A stretch of DNA of 64,000 nt, taken from IMG/VR virus record IMGVR_UViG_3300031760_000037; one strand, written 5' to 3'. Both the position numbers and the translations under genes were made by a program. Positions 2-52,182 of the stretch are shown here, piece by piece. A model generated the notes under the pieces. It was not told the origin of the DNA, searched no databases, and saw nothing but the letters and a program-made list of their open reading frames with translations. The stretch comes from an uncultured virus (IMG/VR IMGVR_UViG_3300031760_000037). Taxonomy: Duplodnaviria; Heunggongvirae; Uroviricota; Caudoviricetes. Numbering within the stretch: the first letter of the stretch is position 1; every line of letters begins with the position of its first letter.

Positions 2-3000
2 GAATATATTAATCAACAACAAACTATTGCTAATGAAACTAATAATTGAGAATGGACTAATCAACAAATTGTTGACATATTTTGAACAACAGAAAATTTT
101 GATGCTTATCAAAAAGGTGAGAACTTCTCATTCTGAGATAACTTTATTAACAATCTAAGAGCTGCTAATAAAACAAAGTTCGATATAATGAAACAAAGAG
201 CTGCTGCATTAGTAGTCACTTCACAAAGTATAAAATGAAATAATCTACAAGAAGTATTTGACAAGTTAGCGCCAAAGGTTGACATTAATTGAACAACTGT
301 AAGAACTCCATTATCAAAAGCTCAGATATCAGAACTTGAAGCTACATATAATGCTATAGAACCAGGAACTCCTGCAGCACAACAATATATAATGCAACAA
401 ATGATCTCTGGATTTAATGTCCAATTGAATACTATTGCTGATGTCTTATGAATCTGAGAATGAAGTGAACTTCGGGATTCAAAGAAATGAGATTTCAAAA
501 AGACAATTAAAAGAGAAAACTGAGAACGTATCTCAGCAAGAGATTATATTATAGAAAGAATAAATGCTGAAGATAACTGATTAACTCAAGAGCAGAGAGC
601 GTTTATTGCTAATATGCTTTTTAGAACAAGCTCATTATGAATTAACTCATATTTCACAGATAGTTGAGCTTTATCAAGATTGTGAAAAGATTTTTTCAAT
701 AGTGTACTTCCAGCTTTAGAAGATAGTAAAGCTGCAGAAAATCGATTGTCATTTATAATGACTGATCAAGTATCTAAGATTTCAAAAATGCAAAAATCTA
801 AAGCTGATGCTTTAGAAGAAAGATGAGAAGAAACTCATAAGATTGATAATTGAAATGTTATTCAAAAAACTGCTGAAGAAATCTTAAAAGATAACTGAGA
901 TACAAGAGAAAACTGAGTATCTGGTAAAACTGAAGATGTTGAACAATTAACAGAAAATGCTAACTATGTAAAAGCTCATTTGCCAAGAATGGAAAGAAAA
1001 TGAAGCTTTGTTAATATTCCATTAAACAAAGATGCTGATCTTTGAGATTTATGAGCAATGAATGAATGAATAAAGATTAATTGAATTGATATCTGGAAAG
1101 ATGAAAATACTGATGCCAATATTAATAGTGATTCAGCAAAAGCAAGTTATCAAAGAATAAGATTCACATATAAAGATAAAACAACAAAAGAATATTATGC
1201 TGTTCCTCAATTAAACTATGCTATTAGAAATCAGGCTGAAGATGAACAAGCTGATGATTGGTTTAATTCATTCGTATTACTAAGTGCTGATCCAGAAGAT
1301 TGAGAAAGAATAACTAAAAGATCTAGCGTTATCTTTAGATGACCAGATGAAACATTCTCTAATAGTAAGAATGTAATATTCGATGTTTTAGATAAAGATT
1401 GAAATCCTGTAAAAGGTAATAGAGTAATTAACTTTACTCATAACCCTGAATCTGGATGGAGACTTGCTACTACTATTCAATTGAATAGACTTTCAAAAGA
1501 AAATAGGAATAGTGCTTATTCTAAATGACATGTGTTTGTTAACCAAAAACATAATGAAGAAATTAATTGAAAGAAAAAGAATTATTGGAGAACTGTTGAA
1601 TTGCCAAATGGTAAAGTAGTAGATTATGATACAAGAGAGATATATACAATAAGTGATATGATCATGGATGATAATGCTACTGGTATTACTATCTGATGAA
1701 CAACTTATGGTATCTGAAATAAGTTATTTGAAAGAGAACATCTTCGTACTCAGAATACAACAGATGAAATAACAGAAACAACTCCAGAAGATATTCAAGA
1801 AAAAAATGAAACTCTTATTAGATGGGAATGAGGTTTCACTCCTAGAACTAAAGCATGAAAGGATGCTATTAAAAAACAAAAAGAAATAGATAAGAAAACT
1901 GAAGAAATCCATGAAAAATGAGTTGAAGAAGCATTGTCAGATACTGATGATCCAACTGTATCAGAAGAAGAAAGTATCAATAATTATAACAAGTCTATCG
2001 ATCCAAGAGTTTATGAAAAGGCTAAAACAAAAATACAATTAATCGCAACAGAAAGCGATTGATTCAAAGTCTGAGATTATATTGATTTAAATCTATTGTC
2101 TCAACTTGATGGACGTATTGTAGATGATTGAAGTGCAGAAAGTGAGAATTATAAGACTCTTGTAAAGAAATGTATCATCTCTGACTTTAAAGATATCTCT
2201 GATAAAGATGCTTATGATTTAATCAATAAGTTATACTTTATTCAAAACAATTTTGATTACTTAATACAACAATGATATGATGAATATCTTGGTGTTTATT
2301 TTGCTATTGATGATCTTATCTTTGTACTAAATCAATGATTATGAGATAAGGTAAGAAAGATTATAGTAAGCGATGAACATGCATTAAAAGAATTTAATTG
2401 AAAATCTGTTGATGACTTCGTTGATAATGTAATGCCTGATTGATATTCTCCAGTTGAAATATGAATATCAGCTGACAAATATTGACATATAATATGAATA
2501 AATATTGGTAATAATGCGACTTCTTTATCTAGGAAATGAACTGTATTATTTACACACTCACATCCTAATTCATCATTCTTCTCATTGAGTGATATACAAT
2601 GAGCATATAACCAATGACTAGAACAAATATGATTAATATTGCCAGGATGAGTTCATCTTGAATATGTTATCGATGACTATTTTGAAACGGTAACTCATGA
2701 TAATAATGGTAATATTATTTCTCCATGGATGCATGAGTCGCTTGATTCAACTATAATGCAAGCTATGGATTTGGCTGCAAATAGTTGAGTATTCGATACT
2801 CAAAAATGGTGAGACTTCGATGCATTAGCAAAAGATTATATCTTAGCTTTTAATGATAAATGATATCTCACTGATTCAGAAAAAGACGCATTTAGAATGC
2901 AAGCAAAAGCTATCGCATATAATGTCTTCAATAAAATCTGAAAACAATTAAAACAAGAAGCTATTGATAGTTGAGATATTAATAAATATTACTTCTTTAA

Positions 3001-6000
3001 TAAATCTTGATTTAGTAGAGAGTCTCAAGCTTTAGCTTCAACAACTGCTAATCCATTATTAGCTGATTCATTATCACAATTAACTGATAGTGAAAAACAA
3101 ACTACTGAAAGATATCTTGATCAAAAATATGAAGTTATAGAATGTAGATCAGACGATGATTTCAAAAATCTTAGAAAGACTGCTAAAGCAAATGATTGAA
3201 TTTATACTTTAAGATGATGAGTAAATCATTTCGGAAACCCTTGGTCTTTCGAATGAAATGTGTGAACTATAAAAGCTAACTCAGCAGAAGAAGCTGTAAA
3301 TAATTATTTTGCTTGGTTAACTGGTAGGGATTTTCAAAAAGTTGAACCTAATAGAAGACAATGGATTGTTAATCAAATCCTTAGTTGAGAATTAAAATGA
3401 AAAAAAATTTATTATTATACAAAAAAAGTAACTAAAGGATGGAATTGATGAGTTTACTCTGTTGATTGAAAATACTGAAACACTGAAGAATACTCATATA
3501 AAGAAGATTATAATGAGCTATGAAATCGTGCATATAATCATGCTATGGTTTTGTGAATGCTTATTAATATGCCACAGTATATTCAACATGCTAATAGATT
3601 ACATACAGTTCCAGAAGTAGAAAAGACTTTAAAATCTCCAATATTAAAAAAACTTTTTAAACAAGATTTAATTGCTTTAGGAAATTCAAATAAAATTATT
3701 TGATACCAATCATCAAAATTATTTACTCCATTACTATTCAAATATAAAGAATGGAATAAACAAAATTCAAATGTTTATGACTACAAGAATAGTGACGTTG
3801 TATTTGTAAATATTCCTCACTATACAAAAATTAATAGTAGCGTATCTGATGAAGAATATCAAAGATCTGTAAGAGATTGTATTAATGCAACATTAGCTAA
3901 GGTAAAATTAGCTATTAATGCCTGAGCTCAATTTACAACATGAATGCAAGCTTCAGCAAATGAAAAAGAATTATATCGATTATTAAAAGATAATTGATAT
4001 GCTGCATACAATATGAACAATAGATATATCTTGTGGAAAAAAGTATGAACAGAAACTAATAAAGTAAATAATCCTTCACTATCTTTACAACAAGAAGTTG
4101 AAGCAATCCTAAGTAATGATGAAAAAAAGATTGTGGATCAGATTGAAGAAGAATGATTGCCAGATCCAAATACAAATAATATTGAAGAAAAGAACGCTGA
4201 AATAGTTGATGAATTCTCTCCATTATTAGAGAATGTTCAAAAGTCAACAATTGTTAGTGATATGAATGATTTGTGACTATCATTAGAATTGTTAGATAGT
4301 GAAACGATATGAACTATAATGCTTGCATACGTAAATTGAAAATGACTTGAAGATGTTATTATGTATTTAGCTTCAAAGGTAAGAAGTTCTAAATTAGATA
4401 ACTATATCAAAAATATTTTATGCAGGAACTGAGTATTAAATAGCAATGTTGAATATGACTGAGATACTGTTGATATGGCAATATCAAAGCAAGCTGCTAT
4501 GACATACATAAAAAAGAGACAATACTATATGGCAAATGGTAAGCCTATGAGTAATCTCTCTCCTGAAGAAATTAGAAAACTATCAAACGCTTTATTTAAT
4601 TCAAAAGTTCTATCAGAATTTACAGATAGAGATTTCAAAATACAATTCGTTAAAGCTTATGTTGATCAACAATTCTTATTCAAATCAGAAAAAACATTAT
4701 TGGATGATTTCATAAAATGACAAGAATATAAATTAAAACTTGCTGTTAACAATTATAAAGCACAAGCAAAGGCATGACAATTAATGGATACTTCTGAAGC
4801 TATTGCAGCTGCTATCAATGCTTCTGATTGAATATATAGTAAGCATGATCGAATAGTAGAATCATTAACTCAATACTTTATTGAAGATGTATTCAAAAGA
4901 AATTATAAAACTGCTGACGAAGATTTCATTAATAAAATAAAATCTGCAGTAGAAAAACAATTAGATGAAGATAGAGTTGTTGTGCTAGAACAACCAGTTG
5001 GTATTGATGATGCTAATAAAGGATTTGAGTTCATCACAGAAATTGCATGACTTCCAGATTCAGTAAGATTCTTAATGGCAGATAATATGTATAAGAATAA
5101 TGTAATCTGAAAATGAGTATATAATTATTTGAGGAAAATAGATCCTACTGTTACTGTATTAAACGGAGATAATGATATCTGATTATTATGAGCAGTTATT
5201 GTAAAACAATTTGATGCTGCTATGTGAGATTCTATTAATACAGTAACTGCAACTCCTTGAGAAAAAATAGCATTATTCTTAGATATCTATAGATATTATG
5301 CTACATGATGACATTCATATGAATGACTTATAAATGCATTAGAGCAGAAATATCAAAATAATTCTTCTATGATTCCAGTACTTCAGGAATTAAAATTAGA
5401 TATGGAATATTCTAAGAATGGAATATTCTCTCAAGATTTAATTGACGAAATCAATAAAGCTCCAGAAGCTACAGAAAATGCAGAGGATAATCCATATAAT
5501 GTATTTATCAGAAAAATCGAACCAGCAGGTGCTAACATAGAAGATACAATAATAAGTGCATTAAAAAAGCAATACTATGCAAACACTTCTGCATTCAATG
5601 TTATTATGAAATACGCTCCAAGGAATATTAAGAATAATATTTCTGAATGGATGGTAAATACAAATGATAAAGAACATTGAAGCAATATTGCTTTATGAAT
5701 GGTGATGTCATTTTTATCTGCTGCTAACAATAAAGAAATATTAACTAAAATCGCTATGGATTTAGCTAATCAAGAATCTACAGAATGAGTTCCTGAACAA
5801 GTAAATGCATTAGCTAGAGAAATTATTCAAGATTGGAATGATGATACAATCATGTGATTGCCTGCTATAACAGAGCAATTACACAGAGCAACGTGAATAA
5901 ATAATCTTGATCTTTCAAAATGAACAGTGCTTTATGTTTGAGATAAATGATGAGAATATAAACCTGCAAGTTGGGATACATTAGATTGAAAGCAGACATT

Positions 6001-9000
6001 CCCTTTAAAGGCTATTGCAAGCTTAGATGACTTAAATGCTAATGTAAATATTATTGTTCCAGAATGAATAAGTGTCCCTACAAAATTTAGGCAGGATCAT
6101 AATATTGTTAGAGTAAGAGCTGGAATAAAAGATTCAATGCTAGTACGAAGTCCAGAATCTAGTTATAAACACGATCTCGATGCTGTATGAAATACTATTT
6201 CATGACTATGAAAAGTATGACATGATGTATCTATACAGGAATGATTTACTTTCACAAATGATGAAATCTCAAAACTAAAACAAAAGAAGTTGACTAAAAA
6301 CTTCTATTGGAGAATTTATAATGAGATTTTAGTTCCTTCATTTCCATCATGAGCTAAAGAATTATCTCAAAGAGATTTCAATGCTATGATTAATTCAGAA
6401 TCAATGCAAGCTACAAAGCTTAGATTAATTCAAGCTGCCATAGCTTCTAAGAGTATGGATGATAAAATCAATGCTGCTACAATCTTAATTAATCAAGTAA
6501 CGAATTGAAAATTGGCATTACAAACTGATATCGAATGAACAACTAAAAGCATTAATATGGAATGAGCTGCTCAACAGTTTGAAGAAATGATAAACAAGTT
6601 GCTCGATCCAAAAGATGAAAATTATAATATGCAAAAAAAGATGCTATGGAATTTCTTTGCTGCATATTATTCATCATTAATGTCAATGTCTCATCCAACA
6701 GAATCTCCAATTTGAAGCTGAGTTGGTATTGATGCGTTCTATGATTTGAGCGTTAACTATCAAGCTGCTATGTGATTATTAAAGCAGCTTTGGGAAGATA
6801 AATGATATCCTACTTCTAAATACGCATATCTAAGATGAGAAAATGCTTTAGAAAGAAAAGATGAGAAAATCACAGATACTATCTGAGAAGTTATGACTCA
6901 AGCAGAAATTGATAATGAGTTCTGAGAATATCTATCTGAAGCATTATGAGATTATGTTAATGACTATGATTCAACTGTAGATGCTGAGTATGAAGAAGCT
7001 CAAGATACTTGATACGATCAAATTGAACACTTCGAAGTAGAAGATGAGAACTTTGAAGATAAAGATGCTATCGTATTCGCAACATTATTTAATGATACTA
7101 TCGTTGATAATCTCTATGATGTTGAAGATTATAATATCCATTATGATGAAGATGGTTCAAATAAGTTTATCTCAAAGAATCTATTATGATTAATAAGAAA
7201 TGAGACATGAGAAATCGTATCTTCTGAATCAGTTCTTGATATGGAAAATGCTAGTAAAAAAGAAGATGCTGTTATAACTATTTGAGACATGCTTGCATTG
7301 CAAACAATAATATCATGTAATGAATGATCTCCAGAAGAATTGGAAACATTCTTAGACCAGATATTCCAAGTTGCAGATTGAACTCCTGATACTGCTCCAG
7401 TAAAAGCGTTGTTTGAAAAAGCAAAGAGTGAGATTATGAGAGATACAAATAATACAGCTAATGTATTAAAGAAATTAATATCAAATGATTTGCTAAAATT
7501 CGATGTAATCTCAACAACTATGACAACAACTCAGAAGTTTAACAAATCTAAAACTAAAGCATTTAAAAGAAGATTAGTTGATACTATATTCAAATATAAT
7601 ACTAAACCAGTATCTCAAGCACAACTTGATGAAATCAAAAAAGAATTCGCTGAGTTCTTTACTGATAAGCAATGAAACAAACTTCCAAGCATATCTGACG
7701 ATCAAGTAAAAGCTGCTAATGAAATTAGAAATATGTGGAATGATAGAGAATGAGAAAATAAAAGAACTCTATATGTTCCATGACTTGCTTGAGTTTGAAA
7801 AACTACTACATTATGAGCTGCATTAAAAGCTATTCAAAAGCAAGAATGAGCTTATTGAGATGATGCTTCTAGAATAGAAGCTTGAACTCAAACTGCGATA
7901 ACTGATAACTTCTCTAATGAAGATGCAAGAATCTTAGATGAATTTAAAAAGAATCCAGATAAAGATTATTATGTAAAAGTTCATAATAAATGAAAAGATA
8001 TTCGGGTTAGATTTAAATGAATGGATATTATTACTCATGATCAATTAGAAGATTATACTGAAGATTGAGTAGTAAATGAATTCTGAGAATCATTATGATG
8101 AGTATGGCCTAAAGATTGAATATTGAGATTACTTGAAATCTGAGAATGAAATAAAAGATTTAGTCCTGATTGAAAATACAATAGATCAAAGACAAGATAT
8201 CTTATTAAAAATATTAGCACAGTAGATGAAAACTGAAATCAAATAACAGAAGAATCTGCTAAAGCTGCTATGTGAAATAATAAGATAATTGAAGTTCGTT
8301 GACTTGGAAATAATATTCCTAGAAGGCCAGAGCAAAAATGACCTGATAAAATAGAATGAACTTCAAGATTAAAGAATATCTATATCTTAACAAAGACTCA
8401 TTCAACAGTACAATCTATCAATGATGTTATGTGAGATAACTGATTAGTATGAGTTAACAGTGCTACTATGGATAGTAGGCTAACAACAAAATCGTCATCT
8501 TGATTCTGATTGTATTGATACTGAGCATCAAGTGAAATTCGTCAAGATAAAGAATTAGAGAATTGTCTTATCATTATAGATGAATCTCAGAATACTGATG
8601 ATCCTACAATACAAGCTATCATTAATTGATACTCTGATAAAAACCAAATGGTATTCTTATGAGATCCTCATCAGATATCTCAAGGTTCAACTTTCGCAAG
8701 TAAAGTTGCTAGTGCCGATGAAGAAGTATTGCCATTGGATTCATTATTCAGATGAACTCCAGATATTCAATCTGTTAACAAATTAAATGCTTTATGACAG
8801 AATGATATTATTGAATCTTGATATGTTGCTATAATCCCTGAAGATTCAAATGATTTCAAAGCATACGATAATCTTGAAGATGTCTTCGATTTGAAATGAA
8901 CTACAATGTATTCTGTTCAAACAAATGAAAGAGCTGAACAAGTTAATAGAGAATACTTTGAGTGGGCTACATGAAATAAAGGATGACAAGTTACTAAGAT

Positions 9001-11359
9001 AATATCATGATGACAAACATGAGCTGATAAAGCATGATTACAAATAGCAAAAACTTTATGAATAGCTACATGATGAACGGCTCCTAAATGATGGAAAACA
9101 GAAAATTGAGCAGATGAATCATTACAAGAATTCTGATTATCAGAAAGTGAAACTGATAATTATATGGAAAGAACAAAAAAGAATGTTGATGATTCAGATT
9201 GAACAATAATTCTTGCAAAGGATATAAATTCTTCATGAACAAAAAATACTATCGATTATGCTAATTCAAAAAATAAACCTGTATTTATTATCCAACCAAC
9301 AACAAGTCCTGAAGAAATTAGATCTTGGTTAGTGTTAAATGATATAAAAACATTAAATGTTGCTGGTAATAGATGAAGCAAATTTAAGACTTGAGAAATA
9401 AAAGTATATTGAAAAATCTTAAAAGATGCTTTAGATACATGAATAAAGAGTAAAGGTAGTAAACCAATTCCAACAATGGTTATTGATTCTATAATGATCA
9501 ATCAAGAATGAAAACAAGTTCAAGATAAAGCAGTTATGAATAAACGTAATCATCAATGAATTAACTTATGAGATTATAATCCAGAAGTTATAGATGGAAA
9601 ACAAGTTTATAAAAAAGAATCTGATGATAGCGTAGAAGTGTTCGTTCCTGTATTAAAGGATACAAAAACTGAAACTGTAAAGCCTATAATGACAATATTG
9701 AAAAAGCAATATCCTAAAAAGAAAATTCAGATTACAGCAACTGCTTTCGCAGTTACAACAAAAAAGCAATCTTGAAAAACTGTTGATAATATCATCCTTG
9801 ATTGAGAAATAACAAGTCCAAAGAATGACTTCTATTGAGAATCAAATACTCGTCAGGCATATGACTCATTTACAAGATGAGATAAGAAAGTTTATTATCC
9901 TGCTGATTCTAAAAGAATATTGTTCGCTCCTATTGAACAGATAAAAGAATTAGTTGATAATAACAATCCTAATATTTCATTTACTGCTCCTTCTGAAGAA
10001 GTTGCCACAACAGAAAAAAGGATTAATATCCCAATCTTCTATGCTAATGATTGAGTCAAAGAAACAAGAGATAAACTAAATACGATTATTGAATTGCTCG
10101 GTGAAAATATGCCATTTGAAGAAGTAGAATATGTTCAATGATTAATAGATTCACTTGAATCATTATATGCTATAGAACAGTCTTATAATCTAGAACAACT
10201 TCAATTAGATCGTAAGAAATGAACAAGATGATATTGAGATAAAATGGCTGAATGAAATTGAACGTTATTAAAATGAATCCAAATAGAAATAGCTCAGTTC
10301 TTTGACAAATATAAAGGTTCAATGGAGATAGATGAAAGTAATGAAAAGGATTATGAGAGCTTAGCTTGATGGGTATATGGTAAAGAAGTTAATACTCCAA
10401 ACATTCCTTCATGATCATTCTTTACTTCAGTTAATGCATCACAATCTAAATATTCATTTGAACTATTATCTAAATCTAATAAGGCTTTGAAGGATTGAAG
10501 CAGATGAATGTTCTTTAATGTCAAGAAGACTATTAATGCTAAATGAAAAGAAGTATATACTGTTGTTCCAGCTGAAGTAACTTGGAATAAAGAATATAAG
10601 CCTTGAATATTGACTAGTTGAAAAGATCAAACAAAAGGTGAGAAAAAGTTTGATACTATCAGTAAACGTCTTAATGAATATTGACAAGCATTCACTGCTT
10701 ATCAACAAGCTCAATGAGAAGAGCAAACTAAAAATGCGTTATCACAATTAGTTAATATGATTAATACTGATTTAGCTGCTCATGTCCAAGAAGAAGATTT
10801 ATATACTCCACGTGAAGTATCTACATATAATTGACTTGATGTAGATCCAGAATGATTAAAGAAGTTCTGAATAGATAGAATTGATGATAGTGTAATATCA
10901 GATGCAATGACTTTAGCTTATAGGCAACCTCCAGTTCGTGATGCAGACTGACATATAATACCAGATTCTGATCAATATAATCTTGCACAAACATTACTTA
11001 ATAGATTTAGTTGAATAACTGATAGTGAATGAAATCCTATAACATTAAGTGATGTTGGTAAAATAATTAAAACTCGTGTTCTAAGAGGTGATGATGTAGT
11101 ACCAGGATCTGAACGTACAATTAATTCATATGAAGAACTTGTTCCAAATTCATTAATGACTAACTATAATTCTATAAAAGATAGATTAGCTCAATGAGAT
11201 ACATCAGATTATCTTAAAGAAGACCTCATTGCATTTATAAGAAATATCAATAGTATAGATATGAGAGAATGAATGACTGTTTGACAAAATGAACAAGATA
11301 ACATTTATATAAAAGATATGATGATATCTTGTGATGATGAGTTCTCATGTAAACTTTAA
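2..11359 (+). CDS. Giant polyvalent protein, probably virion-packaged (>3,785 aa, 5'-truncated): JAB-like, DUF4326-like, SF1B helicase with inserted SLOG domain
   Basis: Frame 2 is open with TGA=Gly to TAA at 11357-11359; track fragments 4475, 5369 and 7409 share this frame. Motifs: VEIG...THSHPNSSFFSLSD (2453-2593); HFGNPWS...AVNNYFAWL (from 3227); Walker A GLAGVGKT (7781-7804); IIIDESQ (8570); VFLGDPHQ (8651); KIISGGQTGAD...LNVAGNR (8996-9373); AFAVTTKKQSGKT (9743); AYDSFTRG (9857). Confidence 0.85.
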
Positions 11360-11377
11360 ATCGTATAATATAAAAGC

Positions 11378-14300
11378 ATGGCTACAAGATGTCAAGTAAA
11401 TAAAAAACAAGATGAGATTAATGAATCTATATTTTGAAAAATGTCAGACATAATTAAACTTTCTGAAGCATGAAGGATCGTTGAAGACTACCAGCGTATG
11501 CAAGACGCTGGTACCTTCATGCAACGTGCTTTTAATACAGAATGAATGAGGAATTTTTTAAATAAAAACAAACGGTATAATTGAATCTTAGTAAATCTTA
11601 CAAATAAATCCGCTGCTTCTAACAATCATGATTATGTAGTTAAAATGAAAGAAGCATTCTATTCTCGTATTCAAGAAGATGCTGCAACTAATTTATCATA
11701 TGATAATAGATGATTACATACATATGATGATTGGAAAACTTGATTAGAATTAAAACAAAATGAAATTAATTTCGTAGATGATCTTTATAATGCATTAAAT
11801 GATTACGTATGAGAATGGAATAACTGTGATAATAAAAATTTGGCTGCAGTAGTTAAGACTGCAATAAACGATGCTATCGTATCACAAGATTTATGAGATG
11901 AACGTAATCCTAATGAATGGAGTAGACTATGACAATTCATCGCATTAGCATCTCCATCATGACAATGATTAAATAATATCTTCTGATTACTTTGAATTCT
12001 TGATACCAGTACAAAAGAAGTAAAGGTAGAATATTCAGACTGAACTGCTGACAATGTGATACTTGCTGATTTGTATAGCAATGATGATGATAGAATGCAA
12101 AGAGCTGTCAGTTTATTATTTGATGTAAATACAAATGATCCAGCAAGATGAATAATCAATAATCCTGCAATATATAGACAATCAATAAAAACGCTTATGA
12201 AAGCTACTGAAGTTGATTGATTAAACAGATGATTAAAAACTTTATTAAAATTCGCAGCTATGTGAAAATTATCTTCATATACTGTTTGAGCTTTAATGTG
12301 AAGATTATCTGGATGTATGATGTGATTGACTTGTTTCTATACATGATATCTTAATATGATGTCATATAAGAAAAAGCATTCAAATAAAAAATTACATCAT
12401 GCATTAAAAACAATTTGATTAGGACAAGATTACTTTGACTTCAAAGAAGAGCCTATGTCTTGGATAACTAAAAGATATCAATATCTAAAGGATGCTATGT
12501 TAGCTAAAGATCCTAGAAAATGAAATGTAAACGATCCAACTCGTAGTCAATCTATAATGGCTAAGTTCACAAGAAATCAATTATCCAATTTATCATGGAT
12601 GCTAATGTGAGTAGCAAACATATTCTGAGATACAGTATTCAGATGAGGATATCAGCTAATAGCTATGGATATGGCTATGCAAAAACTTTGATGGGAAGAT
12701 ATTGAATCTCATTTATATACCGTTTGACCAGATGGTAAAATGGATATTAATACTGACGCTTTCTATTCATTAATGGAAGCTTATATAAAAAAGATTTGAG
12801 ATGTCACCTGATTTCCACAAATAGAGTGATGAGCGCAATCTTGACTATTCTTTGATATCTCTTGAAAATCTTGATGGTCAAGAAGTCGAAGAGTCTGAAT
12901 GAACGCTGCTTTAAGTATGTGGCGTTGGATGACTCAATGGTGAACAACTTATGTTAATAATACCTATAGAATATTAGCTTGATGAACAGTTAATATGATA
13001 TATGATTTTAATGAAGCTACATGATGAGAAAAGAAAGCAGATAAATTTAATAAAGCTTATGATTGACCAGGATGAAACTGGCTTATCAGAAAATATACTA
13101 GACAGATTGACACAGACTGAAAAGCTATGCCTTGGGAAGCTGCACAAGAATTGGTTTCAAAAGAAGAATATGCTAGAGAAGTTAACAGACTTCTAGCATG
13201 AATTAGAAATATGTATAGACTTTGAAATCTTGCCTGTCGTGATGAAGAAACTTGAGAACTAAGTTATAGTTGTGCTATAAAGAGTCTTGCTGAAGTTGCT
13301 TATCTTCCAGCGCAAGCTGCAAGAATTGCTCATCCAATTATAAGATGAGTTATAAATACAATCTCTGACTGTGTTGAAAACTTTTCATATTTCTGAGACC
13401 GTCCTGAGCTTCAAGTTAAAAATACAGAAATAATTGCAGAATCATTAATTACTAATGTCCTAAAACCTATATTCAGATCAATGTATCCTATAAAGGAAGC
13501 AGCTCTTGCAATAGATAGATGATTTAGTGATTATAATGAAAATAATTTCCTTGAAGATTTATATCAAGTAGCTATGCAATCTACTGATGCTATGCTTTAT
13601 TATACTACTGATGAATTGGCAAGCTATGTATATTCAGCTTGAGCTTATGGTCCAAAGAGCTATTTAAATCAAGATACTTCATTATTCTGATCTCCAAATA
13701 AACTTCGTGATGTCATGTGAAGGATTAATGAATTAAAATCTGTTGAAAGAGTATCTCGTGATTGAGTTATAAGATGAACATGGGAAAGATTGAAAGACTT
13801 ATTTCCAACTATTAGATTGTTTGCTAACTTAGATAATATTATAAATTGAAAATATGATACTACTGAGTTTTATGCAGCAGATAAAGCAGATAAATTCTTA
13901 CAAACATATAATTCTGATGAAGGTATCAGAGCATTAGAGAATTGAACATTCACTGATGAAATGAAATTCAATTATGATTATATGCAATATGTTTGGGAAA
14001 ATCTAACTTCTGATTGGCAATCATATTGAGCCGAATTTAAAAATGGAGTTAGAGACAATAAGTATAATACTTCAGAAATTCAATACTTTGAAACTTTATT
14101 AAAGAATGATTTAGCTGACGCTAGAAAATATAATAATCAAGCCTCAGATTTAGAAATCTATGATATAGCTTTAAAAAAATTCTTTAAGTGAAATCCAACA
14201 TATGAACAAATAAAACAAGCTATTCAATTGTATGACGATGCTTGAGAACATTGAATGTGAGTTTATACTGATTATCTTGCCTCTGCTCATTGGCTACAAG

Positions 14301-15472
14301 AAACTACTTGAGTAAAATGATTAGCACTTATAGCTGAATATAGAAAAAGAATGCTAATGGAGAAAGCAGGATTACAATATTCAACTTCTAATACTGCTGA
14401 TCAAAAAGCTCAAATTAAATTAATTGAAAATCAAGTAGCTTGAGAATTATGACCATATCTATGGTTAGCTGATAGAAGACAGTATTCTAATCTTATGTGA
14501 AGATGGTTTGTTGAAAAACATCCTGAATATAAAGATTATGATCCATTCAAATGATTAACTGACAAAGATTGAAATTGGGATATTCATTGAGATGTAAAAC
14601 AAACTTGAATATTATGAACTGCATTACGAGCTAATCAATTAGCTAGAAGTGAAATGATTACATGAAATACAAATGGATATGAATTAGCTAATGTGTTCAC
14701 AGAAAAATTCTGAAGTCCATTTGATGAAAAATGAAATTTCGATGAAGTTAAAGCTGCACAGATTATTGATATGACAACTCTATTAGATCAAGCTCTTGAA
14801 GATGCAGATAAAACTCCAATGGACCGTTCATTAATTGAAGCTCCATGGCTAACTAAGAATCTTGATTTATGGAATTGGGTTTTAGATAGTGATAATCCAG
14901 CAGCAGAAAAATTCCGTAATCAAATTTGAGAACCAATTATTGATAATATCAGATGATTGCTTTATGATACTTATAATGATTTAACTTCATTGCCTGAATT
15001 ACTAGACTTGCTTAATGATAAAGACGTTATAACAACTATATTATGAAAATGAAAAAGGTGATATAAATGATGAAGCAGTCTTTATTATTGAAATAATACA
15101 AGGAAAAACTATGATTATTACAGCAAGCCTGCTAATGCATTCAAGGCATGGTGAGCTTCTAATTTATCTAAGTTTGCAAACTGATATGGAACATGAAAGT
15201 CAAGATATGCCTGAAATTATTCAAGTAAAGAATTCTACTTCTTGAACCAAAGAAGCTATCGAAATAATGTCAATTCCACAAGAATCGCTCCAGACATTCC
15301 ACTCAGCATCTGAGGATTCTCTAAGACTACAGTCAAGTCAAAGAATCCAGTTAGCTGATTCACAACAAACATTAAGCCTTGGGAAGAAAGATCAACCGCT
15401 AAGTTTGGAAAAGGTAAGGGAATTGTTTGATGAGAAAGATCTCGATGACCAGTATCTAGTTTCAAAGCTTAA
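11378..15472 (+). CDS. Large mostly helical protein (1,364 aa), probable internal virion/ejection protein
   Basis: ATG 11378 (MATRCQVNKKQ) to TAA 15470-15472 with TGA=Gly. Gly-rich hydrophobic patches; lies between the giant protein and the portal. Function inferred from context only. Confidence 0.7.
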
Positions 15473-15644
15473 ATATATAATGGATAATGCCGTTACTGCT
15501 AATCCTAAAACTTGAGAATTAATGGAAGATTTTAAAACAAAATTAGATGCTATTAAATATATAATGAAGTTAAAATGATTTGGTTGAAAAGATGCACAAT
15601 TTGTTGTGAATCTCTTCAACTCAAATCAAGGTAAGATTGGATAA
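15267..15644 (+). CDS. Terminase small subunit-like protein (125 aa)
   Basis: Track ORF 15267 extended through TGA: ...DDQYLVSKLKYIMDNAVTANPKTGELMEDFKTKLDAIKYIMKLKG..., resembling the TerS helical hairpin. Directly upstream of the portal; overlaps the previous CDS by 206 nt. Confidence 0.55.
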
Positions 15645-15667
15645 TTTATTTCATTTAATCTATTCAA

Positions 15668-17728
15668 ATGCCAAGAAAAGCGAATCCAGAACAACAATCA
15701 TTACAAAAGTACCTCACTAAAAAAACAAATTCAAATCAACAAATTGTTGATATTAAACTCATTCAAAAGATGAATGATAATCAAAATAGTGATGTAGCTA
15801 AATACCTTCACGGATTAGTTCCTAAGGTATTTGAATATTTTGATAATAATTTTTGGTGCTGAAAAATTGATTGATATAAAAAATATATTTGATATGCCTG
15901 AGATAGAGCATTTGCATTAGAACAGAAATGACAAGAATGGAGATCTAATATCGTAACTCCATTAACAAGGACATTTGCTGATGCTCTATATAATAGAATA
16001 TTTGATTCTGAATTCGCTATTGATGTTTATGCTACTACTCCTTCATGAGCTAAAGAATATACTGTTAAAATAGATTGAGAAGAAGTAGTATGGTCTCCAA
16101 AAAAATCTGCAGAAGCATTAAATGAATGGTGCTATATTACTTCACGTATTGATGATAATATCAAACGTGCTGCAAAAGATGCTGTAAATACATGAGATTG
16201 ATTTTGGAGAGTTGATATGAACGTGGCTGATGAATTACAAAACTGGTTAGATGATACTAAAGCTAATGATTGAAAAGCTTCTACTAAATGGTATGAGCTT
16301 AAAAAATGTAATGCCGTTGCTGAATATATTCCTTGGGAGGAAATCATCTATGATGCACATAGAGATTTCTATGAATCAGAATTTGTATGATGGAGAAGAA
16401 TAGAATCTGAAGCTAAATTTAAAGCAAGATGGGATTGGTTAGTATCAGTCTCTGACGCTACCTTTGATTATTTAAATAAAGAATGAAACAAGAGATTGTT
16501 CTTTAATAAGGACTATTCTAAATTTAGGAATCTAAAACAGTATGAAAACTTATTAAAGAATAATTCATTCTGATTTGTAGAAACTGATATCTATGGATTA
16601 GACTTTGAAAACATAAAAGATAAATGAGAAACTTATGAACATTGGACAAATGATACTTTAACAATCTGTAGAAATTGATATGTAATATATGATGGTCCAA
16701 ATCCATATTGAGGTATAATCCCTTTTGTGCATTTGTGATTATGAATTGCTGCCAATCAATGAGTCAACGATGGTATTTGTCAACTTTTATATTCTATACA
16801 AATACTCTATGACCTCGTATATAACTGATATGCAGACTACCTTAAAAGACATTTTAATCCAATGTATATGTCAACAGGCGCACAACGAATCGAATGATTC
16901 GAAACAGGATATCTTGATTGGGAGCCGTATAAAATCATTAAAAATTTGGGAGAAGGTAAGGTTGAAAGAATCGATCTCTGAGATGATGTGACGAATGGAT
17001 TTTCTATGCTTCAATCGCTCTACGAAATGGCTAGCCAGATTTCGGGAGTTACTAGATATACTTGAGCATGAGCTTGATCTTGAGTCGAAAGAAGTCCGAG
17101 AGCTGCAGACTATCAAGTCCAGATTACCCTTGAAGTCCTCAAACCTATTGTATCAAGTATATCGAAAGCTTTGGACATGACATCTAAGATCCGATGTCAA
17201 CTTGCAAAAACGAAGCTACCTCCAAAGTCAATTGTATCCATCATGGGTGAAAAAGGAGCAGAAACCTTCAAAAAAATCTCGCTCGAAGACCTCGAGAACG
17301 ACTTCACGATTAAATACAATAACTCGTCAATAGCTGATTATACTAAGACAAAAGAGTTAAATCAAATCCAAAGCTTCATGAATTACTGACAAGTATTATG
17401 AAATGATCCAGCTAGAAACGCTTATATCTTAGATCAAGAAGCTTTGATTAAGAAAGTTGCCGAATTACTTGAAATAGACTGAGCTTTACTTAAGCCAGAA
17501 GATTTACAAAGAATTCGTGAAGAATGGTGAATTGCTACTGTTACTGCTGATACTGCTGTGCAAAATGTTGCACAACAGGCTCAGGCAGAAGCACAACAAG
17601 CAGCAGTGCCAGAATGACAAGCTAATCCAGAATTAGCTATGGCTGAAGCCGATGCCGAACAAGCATTACAAGAGACAGCTCCAGCTGATATGAGCCAATT
17701 TGCAGTAGCGCCTACCGTCGTATCGTAG
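15668..17728 (+). CDS. Portal protein (686 aa)
   Basis: Track fragments 15668 and 17171 are in one frame. WRSNIVTPLTRTF, GDGFWRV, IYDGPNPYGGIIPFV and a Q/A-rich C-terminus are typical of P22/T7-type portals; precedes scaffold and capsid. Confidence 0.8.
16770..17333 (+). CDS. Candidate overprinted gene in the +1 frame inside the portal (~187 aa; alternative ATG 16809)
   Basis: Track ORFs 16725 and 16995 fuse via TGA; the frame has no TAA/TAG from 16719 to TAG 17331. Portal synonymous codons shift to CTC/CTT/GTC/ATC/NCG over this interval. Confidence 0.5.
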
Positions 17729-31192: not shown

Positions 31193-33580
31193 ATGGCTTC
31201 AAATTTGTCAAATACACAGAGTGCCGTAATACCACACAATCATCCAATTAGTGATATTACAAATTTAAGCACTCAACTTTGAAATAAACAAGATAAGTTA
31301 GAAGCATGAAGTAATATCTCAATCTGATCAGATTGAAAAACTATTTCCGCTATTGATACTAAATACTCGGCTTGAGCTAACATATCAATTGATTCTGATA
31401 ATAAAATTAATGCAATTGATACAAAATATGATAACGCAACTCAAACTGTAGCATGACTCATGTCTGCTAATGATAAGAAAAAATTGGATGGTATAGAAGA
31501 ATGAGCATGAGTAGCAAAAGTTACATGAGTAAAATGAGATGCGGAAACTAATTATAGAGAATGAAATGTCAATATTACAAAAAGTAATATTTGACTTTGA
31601 AATGTAGATAATACTTCAGACGCTAATAAACCTATCTCAACAGTAACACAAGCTGCTTTGGACTTAAAGCAGAACATTGCTGATATGCCAACAAAGTTGA
31701 CTGATTTTACTAATGATTGAGATTGAACAAATCCTTTCATAACTAAGGCAGTTAATGATCTAACTAATTATTATACTAAGACTCAGACATATACTAAATC
31801 AGAAGTGAATACTTTAATATCAAATTTTGGCTGATTTGAAGTTGTTGCAACATTGCCAACATCTGATATAAAATCGAATGTAATATATCTACTTTGACCT
31901 ATCTGAACAGGCGCTGATAAATATCAAGAATATATTTATTATAATAGCACTTGGACTTTGATTGGTGAGACTACTGTTGATCTCACTAATTATGCTACTA
32001 AAACTGAAGTTGAACAAGCATTAGGTAATAAATTAGATAAACCTACAAATCAAGATCAATGAACAGTTTGACAAGTATTAAAAAAAACTGCTAATGGTAG
32101 TGAATGGTGAGATGCACCTGCTACATGAGTAATATCAAGTAATAATACTTATGAAGATATGGTTCACTTATCACAAGCCGAATATGAAGCATTAGAAACT
32201 AAAGATCCTAATACATTCTATTCAACTCCAGATGATGAAAGTTGAGCATTTGAACCAGAAAATACTGGTAATACTTGAGATAAGTTAGAAAAGACCGCTA
32301 CAGGTTATCAATGGGTAGATGGAGAACTTGTAAAAATTACAGAAGGTGCTGATGATTATAGTGCTATGCAATGACCTGCTCCTGAGTGATTTCATATACC
32401 ATTATCTACTGAATGGCAATGAGTTAAAACTATAATGAATTGATTAGGTTTAACTACTTGAGACAAATATAGAATAAATTTACATTTACCTCTTTCATGA
32501 GTTCTTAGTTGGACAAACTGAAATATATCTAGTAGGTGAACACTTTGAAGATACTGGTGTTCTAATAATTACTATGCAACTGCAAGAATTATAACTATGA
32601 CTTCATCTTCATTTGTAGTAGATACATCTTCTCAAATGAGTTGATATAATATTAGACCATTTAAAGATTTATTTGTTGTCCCTAATAATACTTGGACAGT
32701 TATTCAATGAACATTATGAAGTGCTTGAATATTCCGAGATGAGACTAATTGACTAATATCTATAACATGAGATGGAACTACTTGATATACAATAGCCGAT
32801 AAAAACTTATGAGCTACTGTAGTATATAAAGACTGAGATACATTGTCAGAGAGTAATTGCTGAAAATTCTATCAACGATGAAATAATTATTGATTTCCAT
32901 TTACATGAGCAACTACAAAAAGCACTACAAAAGTAGATGCTTCATGATATTGACCATGAAACTATTATAGTTCATCAACATTTATTTATAGTACAGGGGA
33001 TGATTGAAATTGGAGTAGTGTCCAAAACGATAATCTCCGATGATGAGTAACTTGAATAATACCTTGATACGTTGATAAATATGCTTGATGAGAAAAAATC
33101 AACGAAGTCCCTACTGACTGAGCTGTTTGACAAGTATTAACTAAAACTAATGATGGTTATGAGTTTAAGAATAGTGATTATTTAGATTCTCCTTTCTATA
33201 AACTTTTAACTTGAAATTGGACAACATTATATACAGATACTTCTACTATACCAACTACTGCTGGTACTTGACAAATTTGAAGTTATCGTTATATTCAAAA
33301 TTATAAAATTTATAAAATAGAGATATATTACGAAGGTAATATAGTTTTAGAATATATAATGTTTGCATATCCTAATATGTCTCAAAAGGACTGTAATTAT
33401 GTTGTTAATACTTGAACTTTTGATGGTAGCCAAAATCCATTGCTATGGTTAATGGTTGGGTGTTGAGTTTGATATTCTAGCGGTAAAACATTCTTTCAGA
33501 AGCAAAGAACTGCGTACAAATTAAAGAATTGAACATATTGATGAGGTGCTGTTAAAGAAATTATTTATTGAATAAACTAA
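31193..33580 (+). CDS. Tail fibre with permuted C-type-lectin-like (Fib_succ_major/DUF1566-type) domain (795 aa)
   Basis: KQDKLEAGSNISI, GLMSANDKKKLDG, GLGNVDNTSDANKPIS, LSQAEYEALETKDPNTFY, then GPAPEGFHIP...RPFKD...IADKNLGAT...YQWG. Confidence 0.8.
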
Positions 33581-34660
33581 AAAAGACAGAATAACCTGAT
33601 TTTAATTATCTAACATAAAAAACTAATGGCTATATATAGATGAGATACTAAAGTATCTTGAATATGAAAAGGGTTTAGACCTGAGAATCCCTGAACAGAG
33701 GGACAGGTCTTAACCAAGACCGCCACTGGATATGCATATCAAGATGTTGAGGCATTGCCAGATTGAGGTGAGGTATGAAATAAACTTGCAAAGACTGCTA
33801 CTTGAAGTGAGTGGGTAGACTGAGAGTTGGTAGAAATAGAAGCTGATGATTATTCAGCTATGAAATGACCTGCTCCAGATGGATTTCACGTTCCTTTATC
33901 AACTGAGTGGCAATGACTTAAAACTATAATGGATTGATTGTCTCTAACTACTTGAGATGGTTGGAGAATTAATTTACATATGCCGTTTGCTGGTTACCGT
34001 AGTTCCTCTGATGCTAGCATCCTCGAGAGGGGTTCCCACGGTTACTATTGGTCGTCTTCTCCTTCTGCGTCTTCTTCTTCGGGCCGCGCCCGTTTCCTCT
34101 ATATGTATTCGTCAAAAGTCTACGCGGATTGGGACACCAAACGTTCTGGCGTGCACTCTGTCCGCTGTTTCAAAGATTCATATAAGACACCTACATCCTC
34201 TTGGACTGTAATAAATGGAACATTATGATGAGCTTGAATATTTCGAGATACAGTAAATTGACTAATCTCTATTACAGGAGATGGAACTACTTGATACACA
34301 ATACAAGACAAAAACCTATGAGCTACTACTGTGTATAATAACTGAGATACATTAACACAAGCTAATATGTGAAATATGTATCAATGGTGAAACAATTATT
34401 GATTTCCATCAACTTGAAGTGTAACAACTTCTAGCACACAAGTAGATGCAAGTTCATATTGACCTTGAAACTATTACTCTAGTTCTACGTTTATAACTGA
34501 AAGTGAGGATTGGAGTAGTGTAAAAAATGATAATCTCCGATGATGAGTAACTTGAGTATTAAATTCAAAGTATGCTTGAGGAGAAAAAATTGCAGAAGTT
34601 CCTAGTATATGAAAAACTTGACAAGTATTAACTAAAACTAATGATGGTTATGAATTTCAA
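32250..34660 (+). repeat. Paralogous ~0.9-kb duplication (about 32250-33170 vs 33675-34660)
   Basis: Collinear, near-identical peptides in the two adjacent fibre genes (GPAP.GFH.PLSTEWQG.KTIM, GLISITGDGTTGYTI.DKNLGAT, VDAS.YGPGNYYSSSTFI, GQVLTKTNDGYEF). Boundaries approximate. Confidence 0.85.
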
Positions 34661-34981
34661 AAAATGTGAAATTTCACAGATTATAATAAATCCGAGACAG
34701 TTGACAGAAAAAATGTATCCTGAGTTTATACTCTTAGCATATGAAAATCAATTCCAAGTAATTGAATATTGTTAATGCATATTTATGCTGAAAGGGGCGA
34801 CTATGATTATAATATTGATTTTGACGCTTGAACTTACAAAATATTCACTGCATTTTGTTGAAAAGTGTCACAATGATTTTTTGCTACATATCCTGTAACA
34901 AAATGACAAAGTACAATTCGTATGAATATGAGTTATGCTAAATTTACAATTAAGATTTTGTGATTTATACCAAATGCTTAA
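33626..34981 (+). CDS. Receptor-binding protein with permuted CLec-like domain, probable DGR target (451 aa)
   Basis: Contains track ORF 33980: LHMPFAGYR...GYYWSSS...GVHSVRCFKD; paralog of the upstream fibre domain. Confidence 0.8.
33985..34175 (+). other. DGR-type variable region (VR)
   Basis: By my count 33991-34170 is 53% GC and 14% A, with no A from 34048 to 34100. Encodes the G.R...YWSSS...SVRC ligand-binding segment with A-free constant codons. Confidence 0.75.
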
Positions 34982-35018: not shown

Positions 35019-35047
35019 AAAAAGCCTCTCTTATGAGAGGCTTTTTT
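35019..35047. terminator. Bidirectional intrinsic terminator
   Basis: aaaaagcctctc-ttat-gagaggctttttt between convergent genes. Confidence 0.85.
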
Positions 35048-35049
35048 AG

Positions 35050-36081: not shown

Positions 36082-36639
36082 ATGGATTGAACAAACACAC
36101 AATTAGGATTCTGAGGCATGTGAACTTGGTTAATCATTCTAATCTTATTCTTATTTATGAGTAATGGTAATGGACTATTCTGAAATGGTTTCGGATGAGG
36201 TAATGCTTGAGCTTGGTTATTAAACGGTATGAACAATAATAACAATCATGACAACACCGTTGATCTAATAAACAACAATACTGCTTGGCAAAACCAATTA
36301 TTCAATCAACAGAATATCTCAAATCTAACTGCTCAAATGAATATGTGATTCTGTAATACTAATCAAAGTATTGAAAGAGCAGTATTAGCTGGTCAACAGA
36401 ACACAGCTCAAATCATAGCTTCTTCTGCAGCTAACGTTCAAAAAGTTTTAGATAAACTTTGCGAGCAGGAAACTGATAGATTGAGAACTGCTTTGGCTGA
36501 AGCTAGAGTGATCGCTCAAAACAATCAACAAACTAATGAATTGATTGCTAGACTATCTCCAACTCCAACACCTTCTTGGATCGTAGCAAGTCCATACACT
36601 TCAATCTATCCTCCCACAACAACCACAACAGCTGGGTAG
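36082..36639 (+). CDS. Conserved phage membrane-anchored protein of unknown function (185 aa)
   Basis: GFGGMGTWLIILILFLFM...GFGGG...ANVQKVLDKLCEQE...LSPTPTPSWIV, resembling a family I recall from gut-associated phages. Confidence 0.75.
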
Positions 36640-49807: not shown

Positions 49808-51217
49808 TTATATGTCTTGTAAAGTAAATCCTAACTCTCAATAGATATTAGCACGTTTAGAAATTCAGCCATAATATTTCTTTCATCATCCTACTTGGAT
49901 AATGTCGGCATAGTCTATTAGAAATCAATATTCTTTTCAAGGAAAGTTTCTACGCATTCTTCATGCAATCTGTGCAAGAACCTTTTGATTAGAAGTATTG
50001 AATGTTAAGATTCAAGTTGTAAGTGCTGGTAAATCTAATCATTCACCACAGCACCCTACAGTTCAGACAATAATATATTGTTGAACATTTTCAAGAGATT
50101 TTTGTAAATCTTGTTTTGACGTTTCTCAGATATGTAATCTTGCGTCTTGTCAAATTTTAGATTTTATTTTTTCATATAACTCTTTAGCATACTCAACTCT
50201 ATCGGTAAAGATTAGTATCTTTCACGATTCGTTTTTATGATAACATTTCAAAGCCATGCCAATAATCTCTTGTGTCCTTTCTTCATCTCCATTAAGCATG
50301 TTTCTATATATCTCATATGAGTCTGATGGCAAATCTCATTTACATTTCATCATATAATCCACGTCGTATTGGCGTGTCTTCTTTACTCTTATAACATATA
50401 ATGGTAAAGCTTTTGCTCATGTTTCAAACATTGTTCAAAATATTTTTTTAAATCAATCTTGCTTGAACTCTTGTCTATATGGTGTGGCTGTCACCCCGAA
50501 CACACAAGTCTTTGGTGTGTCGTTTCTCCATAAACAAATAGCTCTTAACAAAGTATCGCAAGGACATATATGTGCTTCATCACAGATAAGAATTCTGTTT
50601 CAATCATTAAGTTGATCGTAATTCATATCCAATGTTTTGTAATGACAAGCATAACTTTTAGTTGGATCTATGGCTCACTCTTCTTGTGCTCCATTAATTG
50701 GTATCAACTCCATTCATCTTTCTGCAAATGAATTCACAGCATTAGTTTGAATTGTAATATTAGGTGTAACAAAAACAATTGGTCTTTCCATACATTTAGC
50801 TAATCACCATATCATTCTTGTTTTCCCTGTTCAAGTATCTGAAACTATAAGTCAACCACAAGTTGTCTCCATAGTTTTTATCATAGCTTCAATAGCATTA
50901 TACTGATAATCGTATAATTCATCTTTAATTGTATCAAGTGTAGCTAGTGGTCATCAAGTCCATACTGTCTGATGCTCAGCTCACTCTAAACAATATCATC
51001 ATCTTGGTAGATAATATCTAATACTTCCGTCCGAAAGTTTTACTTTCTCAAATAAGTTAATCATCTTAGGGTGCATAGCAAAGTATTGTCTTTGCGCTGG
51101 ATCCTTAATAAAGTAAGATATATCTCTCAAGTCTTTTATCTTAAAATGTTCAGGGACGGTATCGTAAAACACACGTCCCTGCTCATCTACGTCTACATGT
51201 ATATCTAGTGCTGACAT
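49808..51217 (-). CDS. SF2 DEAH helicase (ResIII/UvsW-like, 469 aa)
   Basis: LYDYQ, SDTGTGKT, ICDEAH, GVTATPYR, GEGLDLP, QIAGRMRR. Confidence 0.9.
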
Positions 51218-52182
51218 TACTGTTTATGATAATAATCAACAACTAAACCTATGTATTCTCAAACAGCTTTAGCTTGGTCTCATTTAAACTTTCAACTCTT
51301 ATCAATGTCTGATACAAGCTGATTTAATTGAGTAGCTTCATCTTCTCCTCAAACCATAGTTCCTATTGAGTTAAATAATTTCTCAGCTGAGTCAAAATTA
51401 TTAAATCAAACTTTCTGTGCCATTTCTTTCCAAACAATACTTTCATCAACAGATGCAACAACTTCTCATTCTTCAGCATCAGCATCTTCAACAACAAGTT
51501 TAATCCATGTTCATAAGTTCATATCAGTTGTATCATTAATACAAGCGAACCTTGATTTAACTGGTGCAAGTGGTGAGTCGTTTATTTCAACTACTCTCTC
51601 TCAACCAGGAAGTTTAGTTATTCTAGCAACAACGTCAAAGTAATATGATAACTTTGATTTTAATGATCAGTCTACATTCGGTATATATTTTATAATACCT
51701 CAGTCTTTATCTTTCTCATATCATTCTTGACATATTACAATTACATGTTTATTCAAGTCTCTAATCTGAATAACCACGTCCTTTAATTCATCTGCTAATA
51801 CTCACCACGATTGCATATCAAGGAACCTCTTTTCTCATTTCAAATCTCTTCTAAGATTATCTGAGATTTCTGTCAATGAGTCTATAATGATAACGTCGTA
51901 TGGTTGAGTTAGTTTCTCTAACACACCAGGCTTTCTAAGTTCCTTAATTTGTTCAGCCTTAGTAATTTGTAGAACCTCAGGATCTTTGTCTGATACTTCA
52001 TGTGTCCATCAATTAGGCTGTCCTTTTCTAATAGAAGCTAATCAACCTTCTGCTGATATGAATAAAGTTCTGAAGTCTTTCATAGCTGTTCATCAGAATG
52101 ATGTCTTTCAGCATCATGAATCTCAAAAAATTAAAGCTTTAATCTTCTGGTCTTTGTTTGTAAATGTTTTAATCTCTAACAT
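51217..52182 (-). CDS. AAA_24 / Sak4-like phage ATPase-recombinase (321 aa)
   Basis: KALIFGDSGCGKT, ISAEGG, VIIIDSLTE, YFDVVA, VKSRF. Confidence 0.85.

Follow-up and report, generated by a model that had tools for sequence, protein, structure and literature searches.

The stretch of DNA analysed here (the window, 64,000 nt) represents the first 64 kb of a closed virus record of 74,586 nt, IMGVR_UViG_3300031760_000037 (G000), which is assigned to the Caudoviricetes, has a 127-nt terminal overlap and is read in genetic code 25. CheckV estimated its completeness at 56% despite the terminal repeats, which is a caveat on completeness. The gene content includes a P22-like portal, a holin and tail genes, and the tail cluster ends with the gene under study (33626..34981, plus strand), which encodes 451 aa in code 25 and whose product is predicted to be a tail fibre or receptor-binding protein. 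The gene itself has no PHROG match; the tail role is supported through an upstream paralog (31193..33580, plus strand), which matches tail-fibre PHROGs and Phage_tail_C, contains the same module and carries a decayed variable region (VR) at 32486-32665. Directly after the target gene, a GC-containing inverted repeat followed by a T run (35020-35048) is likely the terminator of the tail operon. Farther along, the minus strand encodes a Sak4-like ssDNA annealing protein (51217..52182; phrog_124, E = 1.2e-43), a candidate helper for the uptake of cDNA or DNA into the VR.

Within the target gene, a sharp adenine-poor, GC-rich island had been described, and the counts agree: positions 33985-34175 (191 nt) contain 28 A (14.7%) and 100 G+C (52%), compared with 35.6% A and 31.4% GC genome-wide, and the island holds the 150-nt interval with the lowest A and the highest GC of the genome. 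Its adenine-free run of 53 nt (34048..34100, plus strand) likewise stands as reported; the next longest in the genome is 28 nt, and the chance expectation for such a run is about 2e-7. The preliminary description further proposed that constant residues use A-free codons against the preference of the genome, which is true of glycine and arginine and only weakly so of serine. Glycine is GGT/GGC in 5/5 cases in the island, and TGA in 40/52 in the rest of the gene and in 411/488 across four large genes; arginine is CGY in 5/6 versus AGA in 162/236; serine shows little preference (TCA 169 vs TCT 145). The island occupies codons 120-183, so that 268 codons remain downstream, matching the earlier figure of about 270 codons from the C-terminus.

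The absence of a template (TR), an RT and an Avd, previously claimed for 64 kb, extends to the whole 74,586-nt record. No RT was detected with Pfam RVT_1, with one related RT as query or with an HMM of 30 related RTs (best E = 0.23), no TR by blastn or an A-wildcard scan (best 48%), and no Avd by phmmer with one Avd query (best E = 0.37). Diversification by a distant phage cassette, one of the sources suggested earlier, is thus excluded for this genome. The most AAY-rich stretch of the genome (19/60 codons) lies in a gene for a 185-aa Asn/Gln-rich protein at 36082-36639, and is not a TR. The locus resembles the DGR of Bordetella phage BPP-1 (mtd VR, avd, TR, brt), where a tail gene likewise has a VR with adenine-specific changes, placed in a C-type-lectin-like domain (predicted in the window phage). 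The two differ in that BPP-1 itself encodes TR, RT and Avd, none of which the window phage has, and in the position of the VR, C-terminal in BPP-1 and inside a permuted domain in the window phage.

When 185,579 species genomes were scanned with two motifs, a single one matched, G001, a 1.3-Mb bacterium whose genes read through TGA (code 25) and which probably belongs to the Absconditabacterales or Gracilibacteria. Its DGR is complete, with TR, RT, Avd-like gene and A-specific VRs together; RVT_1 was matched at E = 3e-15 and bAvd at E = 4e-9 (below cut-off). In the locus (L003:6136-20122), the RT, the Avd-like gene and an AAC-rich TR are accompanied by a tRNA-Leu, a serine recombinase (resolvase), a MutS_I gene and the target; this last is a surface protein exceeding 4,300 aa, and both of its VRs are internal. 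Because the cassette adjoins the serine recombinase and tRNA-Leu, it is likely a mobile island, present in some hosts only. It may be compared with the CPR cellular DGRs of clade 2 (Roux et al., 2021, PMC8144416), as the bacterium that carries it uses code 25 and probably belongs to the CPR.

The TR was compared over 165 fixed-length bases (42 A and 123 non-A), leaving out the variable-length middle. The two VRs of G001 itself differ from it at 20/42 and 17/42 A and at 3/123 and 1/123 non-A positions. The window VR differs at 24/42 A versus 18/123 non-A positions (p = 2.2e-7), or 30/48 versus 24/138 when the middle is included. These A-specific mismatches to a bacterial TR bear out the reading of the island as a DGR variable region, and the homology places that region at 33984..34174 on the plus strand, one base before the coordinates first given to the island. 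Judging from the alignment, the G001 TR is of the same template family but is not the exact template, since 18/123 non-A mismatches compare with 1-3 for G001's own VRs. The proposed search of bacterial genomes for a TR partner has therefore yielded a family TR in a code-25 genome, and no TR differing only at adenines. Neither 141 genomes of the order nor single pattern scans of genomes and metagenomes yielded the exact template. Three of the 141 match the island and 33 carry a related RT; among the order loci examined, four TRs have this motif type and only that of G001 is close. A 12-nt pattern scan over 401 genomes gave matches at control level, the pattern being too short. DNA homology between presumed host and phage is limited to the TR span plus about 10 nt, and 50-68 of 90 upstream bases differ. 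These few bases form an IMH-like tail (34175..34184, plus strand), nearer to the bases after the host VRs than to those after the TR, which may act as IMH. A weak hairpin downstream of the VR in the window and in contig L001 was not seen after the host VRs.

The VR lies in a predicted Fib_succ_major (C-type-lectin-like) module (33854..34567, plus strand) that is circularly permuted, the canonical C-terminal half preceding the N-terminal half. The module matches Pfam PF09603 at E = 3.7e-4, below cut-off; its homologs, including gene A of phage G150, lie above it. BLAST against that gene aligns the halves in swapped order (query 204-310 with subject 29-138, and query 77-194 with subject 141-257), and the host targets have the canonical order. 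The VR is thus internal because the domain is permuted, and the permutation likely arose from truncated tandem arrays such as that of homolog P0002. Many of the homologs P0002-P0049 are arrays of 2-3 modules, so that a single protein can combine VRs of different types, some fresh and some decayed. The internal position, at first regarded as unusual, is not so in this family, as the phage domain is permuted and both VRs of the host target are internal too; internal VRs occur at low frequency in cellular DGRs (Wu et al., 2018, PMC5758913). The permuted lectin shows a route by which a normally terminal VR domain can come to sit inside a fibre. As for structure, a first AlphaFold model (pLDDT 35) was discarded, and for a second (pLDDT 60) Foldseek had nothing to match at E <= 0.001; the module profile, searched against PDB sequences, had 0 matches. 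Residues 1-111 of the second model have 14 weak structural matches (Z 2.0-3.3), including TvpA, Lcl, intimin and CTLDs, which we take to represent the CLec fold. The model is consistent with a C-type lectin fold for the module and is not proof of it.

Such VRs are present in five further near-complete phages (G002, G143, G145, G148 and G150). Those of type 1 occur in G002 (contig L001), in two short phage-like contigs of 3-5 kb (L020 and L021) and in host contigs L018 and L022; other types occur in G143 (two genes), G145, G148 and G150. Mismatches to the G001 TR are again concentrated at adenines, at 19/42 A versus 5/123 non-A positions in L001, 21/42 versus 8/123 in L020 and 21/42 versus 6/123 in L021. 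No RT was found in G002, G143, G145 or G148 (all 95-100% complete), and no TR-like second copy of these VRs in those four or in G150. Viral scans revealed no TR of the window type, and a TR-specific 20-mer had 0 matches in viral_contigs; loci L094, L096 and L097 (3/6 in one viral scan), together with several from another, were judged unrelated. The best order-wide match of the G150 VR type is another bacterial genome, G121. In host contig L018, a gene next to rpsL/rpsG (7232-16950) encodes a giant surface protein that has two type-1 VRs; there is no cassette upstream of it, and the gene runs off the end of the contig.

Comparison of these VRs points to repeated copying. Silent differences are far more frequent in flanks than in VRs between L001 and L020 (33/108 vs 1/37, p = 2e-4), L001 and L021 (41/102 vs 4/43, p = 2e-4) and L020 and L021 (32/102 vs 5/41, p = 0.02), with a similar tendency between the two VRs inside the RT-less G143 (29/127 vs 2/30, p = 0.07). 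Pairs between G143 and G145 show no such contrast (VR 8/38 and 9/31 vs 0.25-0.26). Among L001, L020 and L021, VR differences fall at codon positions 1-2 and flank differences at position 3; conserved silent sites combined with variation at positions 1-2 indicate repeated recopying, not one capture. At the protein level, 120 of 478 homologs were listed and considered as proteins alone. A loose pattern was matched by 142 modules and a strict one by 54; among these 54, the window's backbone is present in 52, and 35 keep the TR register; the window protein and P0013 are among the modules dropped by the strict pattern or register filter. That filter demanded Arg and Gly-or-Trp at some constant columns, whose invariance is hence no evidence. 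In the 35 in-register modules listed, the TR-Asn columns differ pairwise by 83%, compared with 30% in flanks, and the variable residues depend little on flank distance (Mantel r = 0.10, p = 0.10). Their VR glycine columns are GGN-coded in 137/140 cases and TGA in 0, and of the 560 residues in Asn columns, 22 are W/E/Q/K/M, unreachable from AAY. Family-wide repeated rewriting is, as far as such comparisons go, well supported.

The window's copy looks older than the VRs of related phages. Of 115 family-constant columns, 12 have changes private to it, compared with 1-5 in seven other VRs, and it shows no sign of recent recopying, which does not bear out the preliminary picture of a region still being diversified. 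Its flanks have private changes at 19/235 constant columns. Among the 12 VR changes, 7 are to A, and transitions account for 2/12 versus 9/19 in flanks (p = 0.03). At silent sites it differs from three relatives by 5/29, 5/32 and 3/32 (p = 0.07, 0.17 and 0.012), being nearer to them than the flanks are, although the contrast is weaker than among L001, L020 and L021. Its closest and only close VR relative among the matches listed is P0013 (71%), with which it has in common residues that AAY codons cannot give; 8/16 TR-Asn columns are identical, compared with about 17% family-wide. The window copy is thus likely an aged allele, perhaps frozen, which would have been written in an ancestor common with P0013 and then changed by ordinary substitution. 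A sister TR is a less probable explanation of the 12 private changes, since in the close TRs seen an Asn run occupies the place at which the window and P0013 share other residues. In the paralog, the island signature is gone (34% A, 29% GC at 32486-32665); its DNA identity to the target gene is 101/129 upstream (78%), 77/176 in the VR and 284/390 downstream (73%).

Taken together, the island is a real DGR variable region, carried by a phage that has no RT, and its template family belongs to a cellular DGR. Because the VR matches, adenine-specifically, a bacterial TR absent from the phage, the phage family likely borrows a host mutator; the host-phage pairing itself is suggested by genetic code and VR match. 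We somewhat favour the view that the island was written by the DGR of a code-25 host acting on phage DNA (retrohoming) during infection. The RT-Avd complex of the host would copy the TR RNA with errors at adenines, and the mutagenised cDNA would anneal to the phage VR via the constant bases and IMH-like tail, possibly aided by the phage Sak4. As the cassette likely resides on a mobile island in some hosts only, rewriting would be intermittent, and VRs would occur in fresh, aged or decayed states. Feasibility is indicated by lambda-vir, whose gpJ was diversified in lytic growth by a DGR on a plasmid together with a phage recombinase (10.1101/2025.03.24.644984). That system, DGRec, resembles our proposal in that a cell-expressed DGR and an ssDNA annealing protein rewrite a lytic phage receptor-binding gene; it was engineered in E. 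coli, whereas the window phage would be its natural counterpart. A broader hypothesis, on which we are evenly divided, is that this family of code-25 CPR phages routinely parasitises host DGRs, keeping non-autonomous VRs in permuted lectin modules template-matched to the adhesin of the host lineage, so that the host mutator evolves the phage binding proteins. The binding repertoire of the virions might then even be the one with which the epibiont attaches to its partner cell.

The alternative with the greatest weight, which we hold at a minority probability, is repeated capture, whereby already-diversified VR alleles are taken from a host surface-protein gene by short-homology recombination (e.g., by Sak4) and the RT never acts on phage DNA. 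The two accounts predict nearly the same sequences: capture explains the A-specificity and conserved silent sites equally well, Sak4 is present, the modules are mosaic and tandem, and the phage VR tails are of the host-target type, not the TR type. On the other hand, none of the four type-1 VRs on phage or phage-like contigs has host-specific sequence upstream of the TR start, and exact constant stretches are only about 20 nt. Moreover, phage L001 and host L018 have contig names with a common assembly prefix, yet 26/42 and 22/42 A columns differ between them, so that no allele is shared.

Distinctly less probable is a phage-borne source, in which TR and RT would have belonged to an ancestor or to a helper phage in co-infection, and the window phage would have lost them or would borrow them. 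Phage G150 does have its own DGR, and G002, without an RT, carries a VR of the G150 TR family, so that this group does include orphan VRs belonging to phage-type DGRs. However, the G150 TR serves another VR family, for which reason its RT was rejected as serving window-type VRs; the Fib_succ-type gene of G150 has no TR in that genome, viral scans contained no window-type TR, and the only TR of this type found is on a contig with cellular genes. The G150 cassette (L081:7265-11130, code 25) consists of a TR at 9585-9723, an RT at 9916-11130 and a target at 8076-9269, and its VR differs from its TR at 16/34 A versus 0/105 non-A positions. This genome therefore holds an autonomous VR beside an orphan Fib_succ-type VR. 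In G002, one gene (L001:9971-11875) bears two VRs of two DGR families, an internal one of Fib_succ type and a C-terminal one that differs from the G150 TR at 25/34 A versus 13/105 non-A positions.

One ancient capture of a host lectin VR, after which ordinary mutation and positive selection acted and no DGR contributed again, would fit the pair formed by the window and P0013 and the decayed paralog. As a family-wide account it is disfavoured and we consider it very improbable, given that silent sites are more conserved in VR than flanks among L001, L020 and L021, and that flank distance has little bearing on the variable residues, nearly all of which are AAY-reachable. A compositional accident of a Ser-rich loop, for which the many serines encoded could speak, can practically be dismissed in view of the chance expectation, the A-specific match to a real TR, and the paralog, which codes a similar loop at 34% A.

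Among known systems, those close to host DGR action on the phage include the cellular DGRs of Treponema denticola and others, where VRs far from the RT are served in trans (Wu et al., 2018, PMC5758913). Those remote targets are in the same genome as the cassette, whereas the window phage target is on a separate genome; the covered part of that paper treats remote targets as a non-phage feature and gives no case in which the target of a cellular DGR is on a separate phage. A literature search by title and abstract start, mainly over journals open without subscription, found no cellular DGR serving a separate phage; target tables of PMC5758913 or PMC8144416 could hold such cases, and the part of PMC10746230 covered has 0 mentions of DGR. 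Roux et al. (2021, PMC8144416) state that VRs away from the RT are beyond detection by their survey, to which the phage VRs would therefore be invisible. DGR surveys seek VRs near the RT and would miss phage targets of cellular cassettes, and DGR-driven phage diversity would consequently be undercounted. If true, host DGR action on the phage would be a natural case of a DGR acting across genomes, in which a tool of host adaptation becomes a liability, and VR type would be a possible host-prediction marker for uncultured CPR phages.

Apart from the tail cluster, two frames of 986 aa and 3,723 aa (genome 71629-74586 and window 188-11359) meet at the terminal overlap, which suggests one giant protein of about 4,700 aa spanning the junction.
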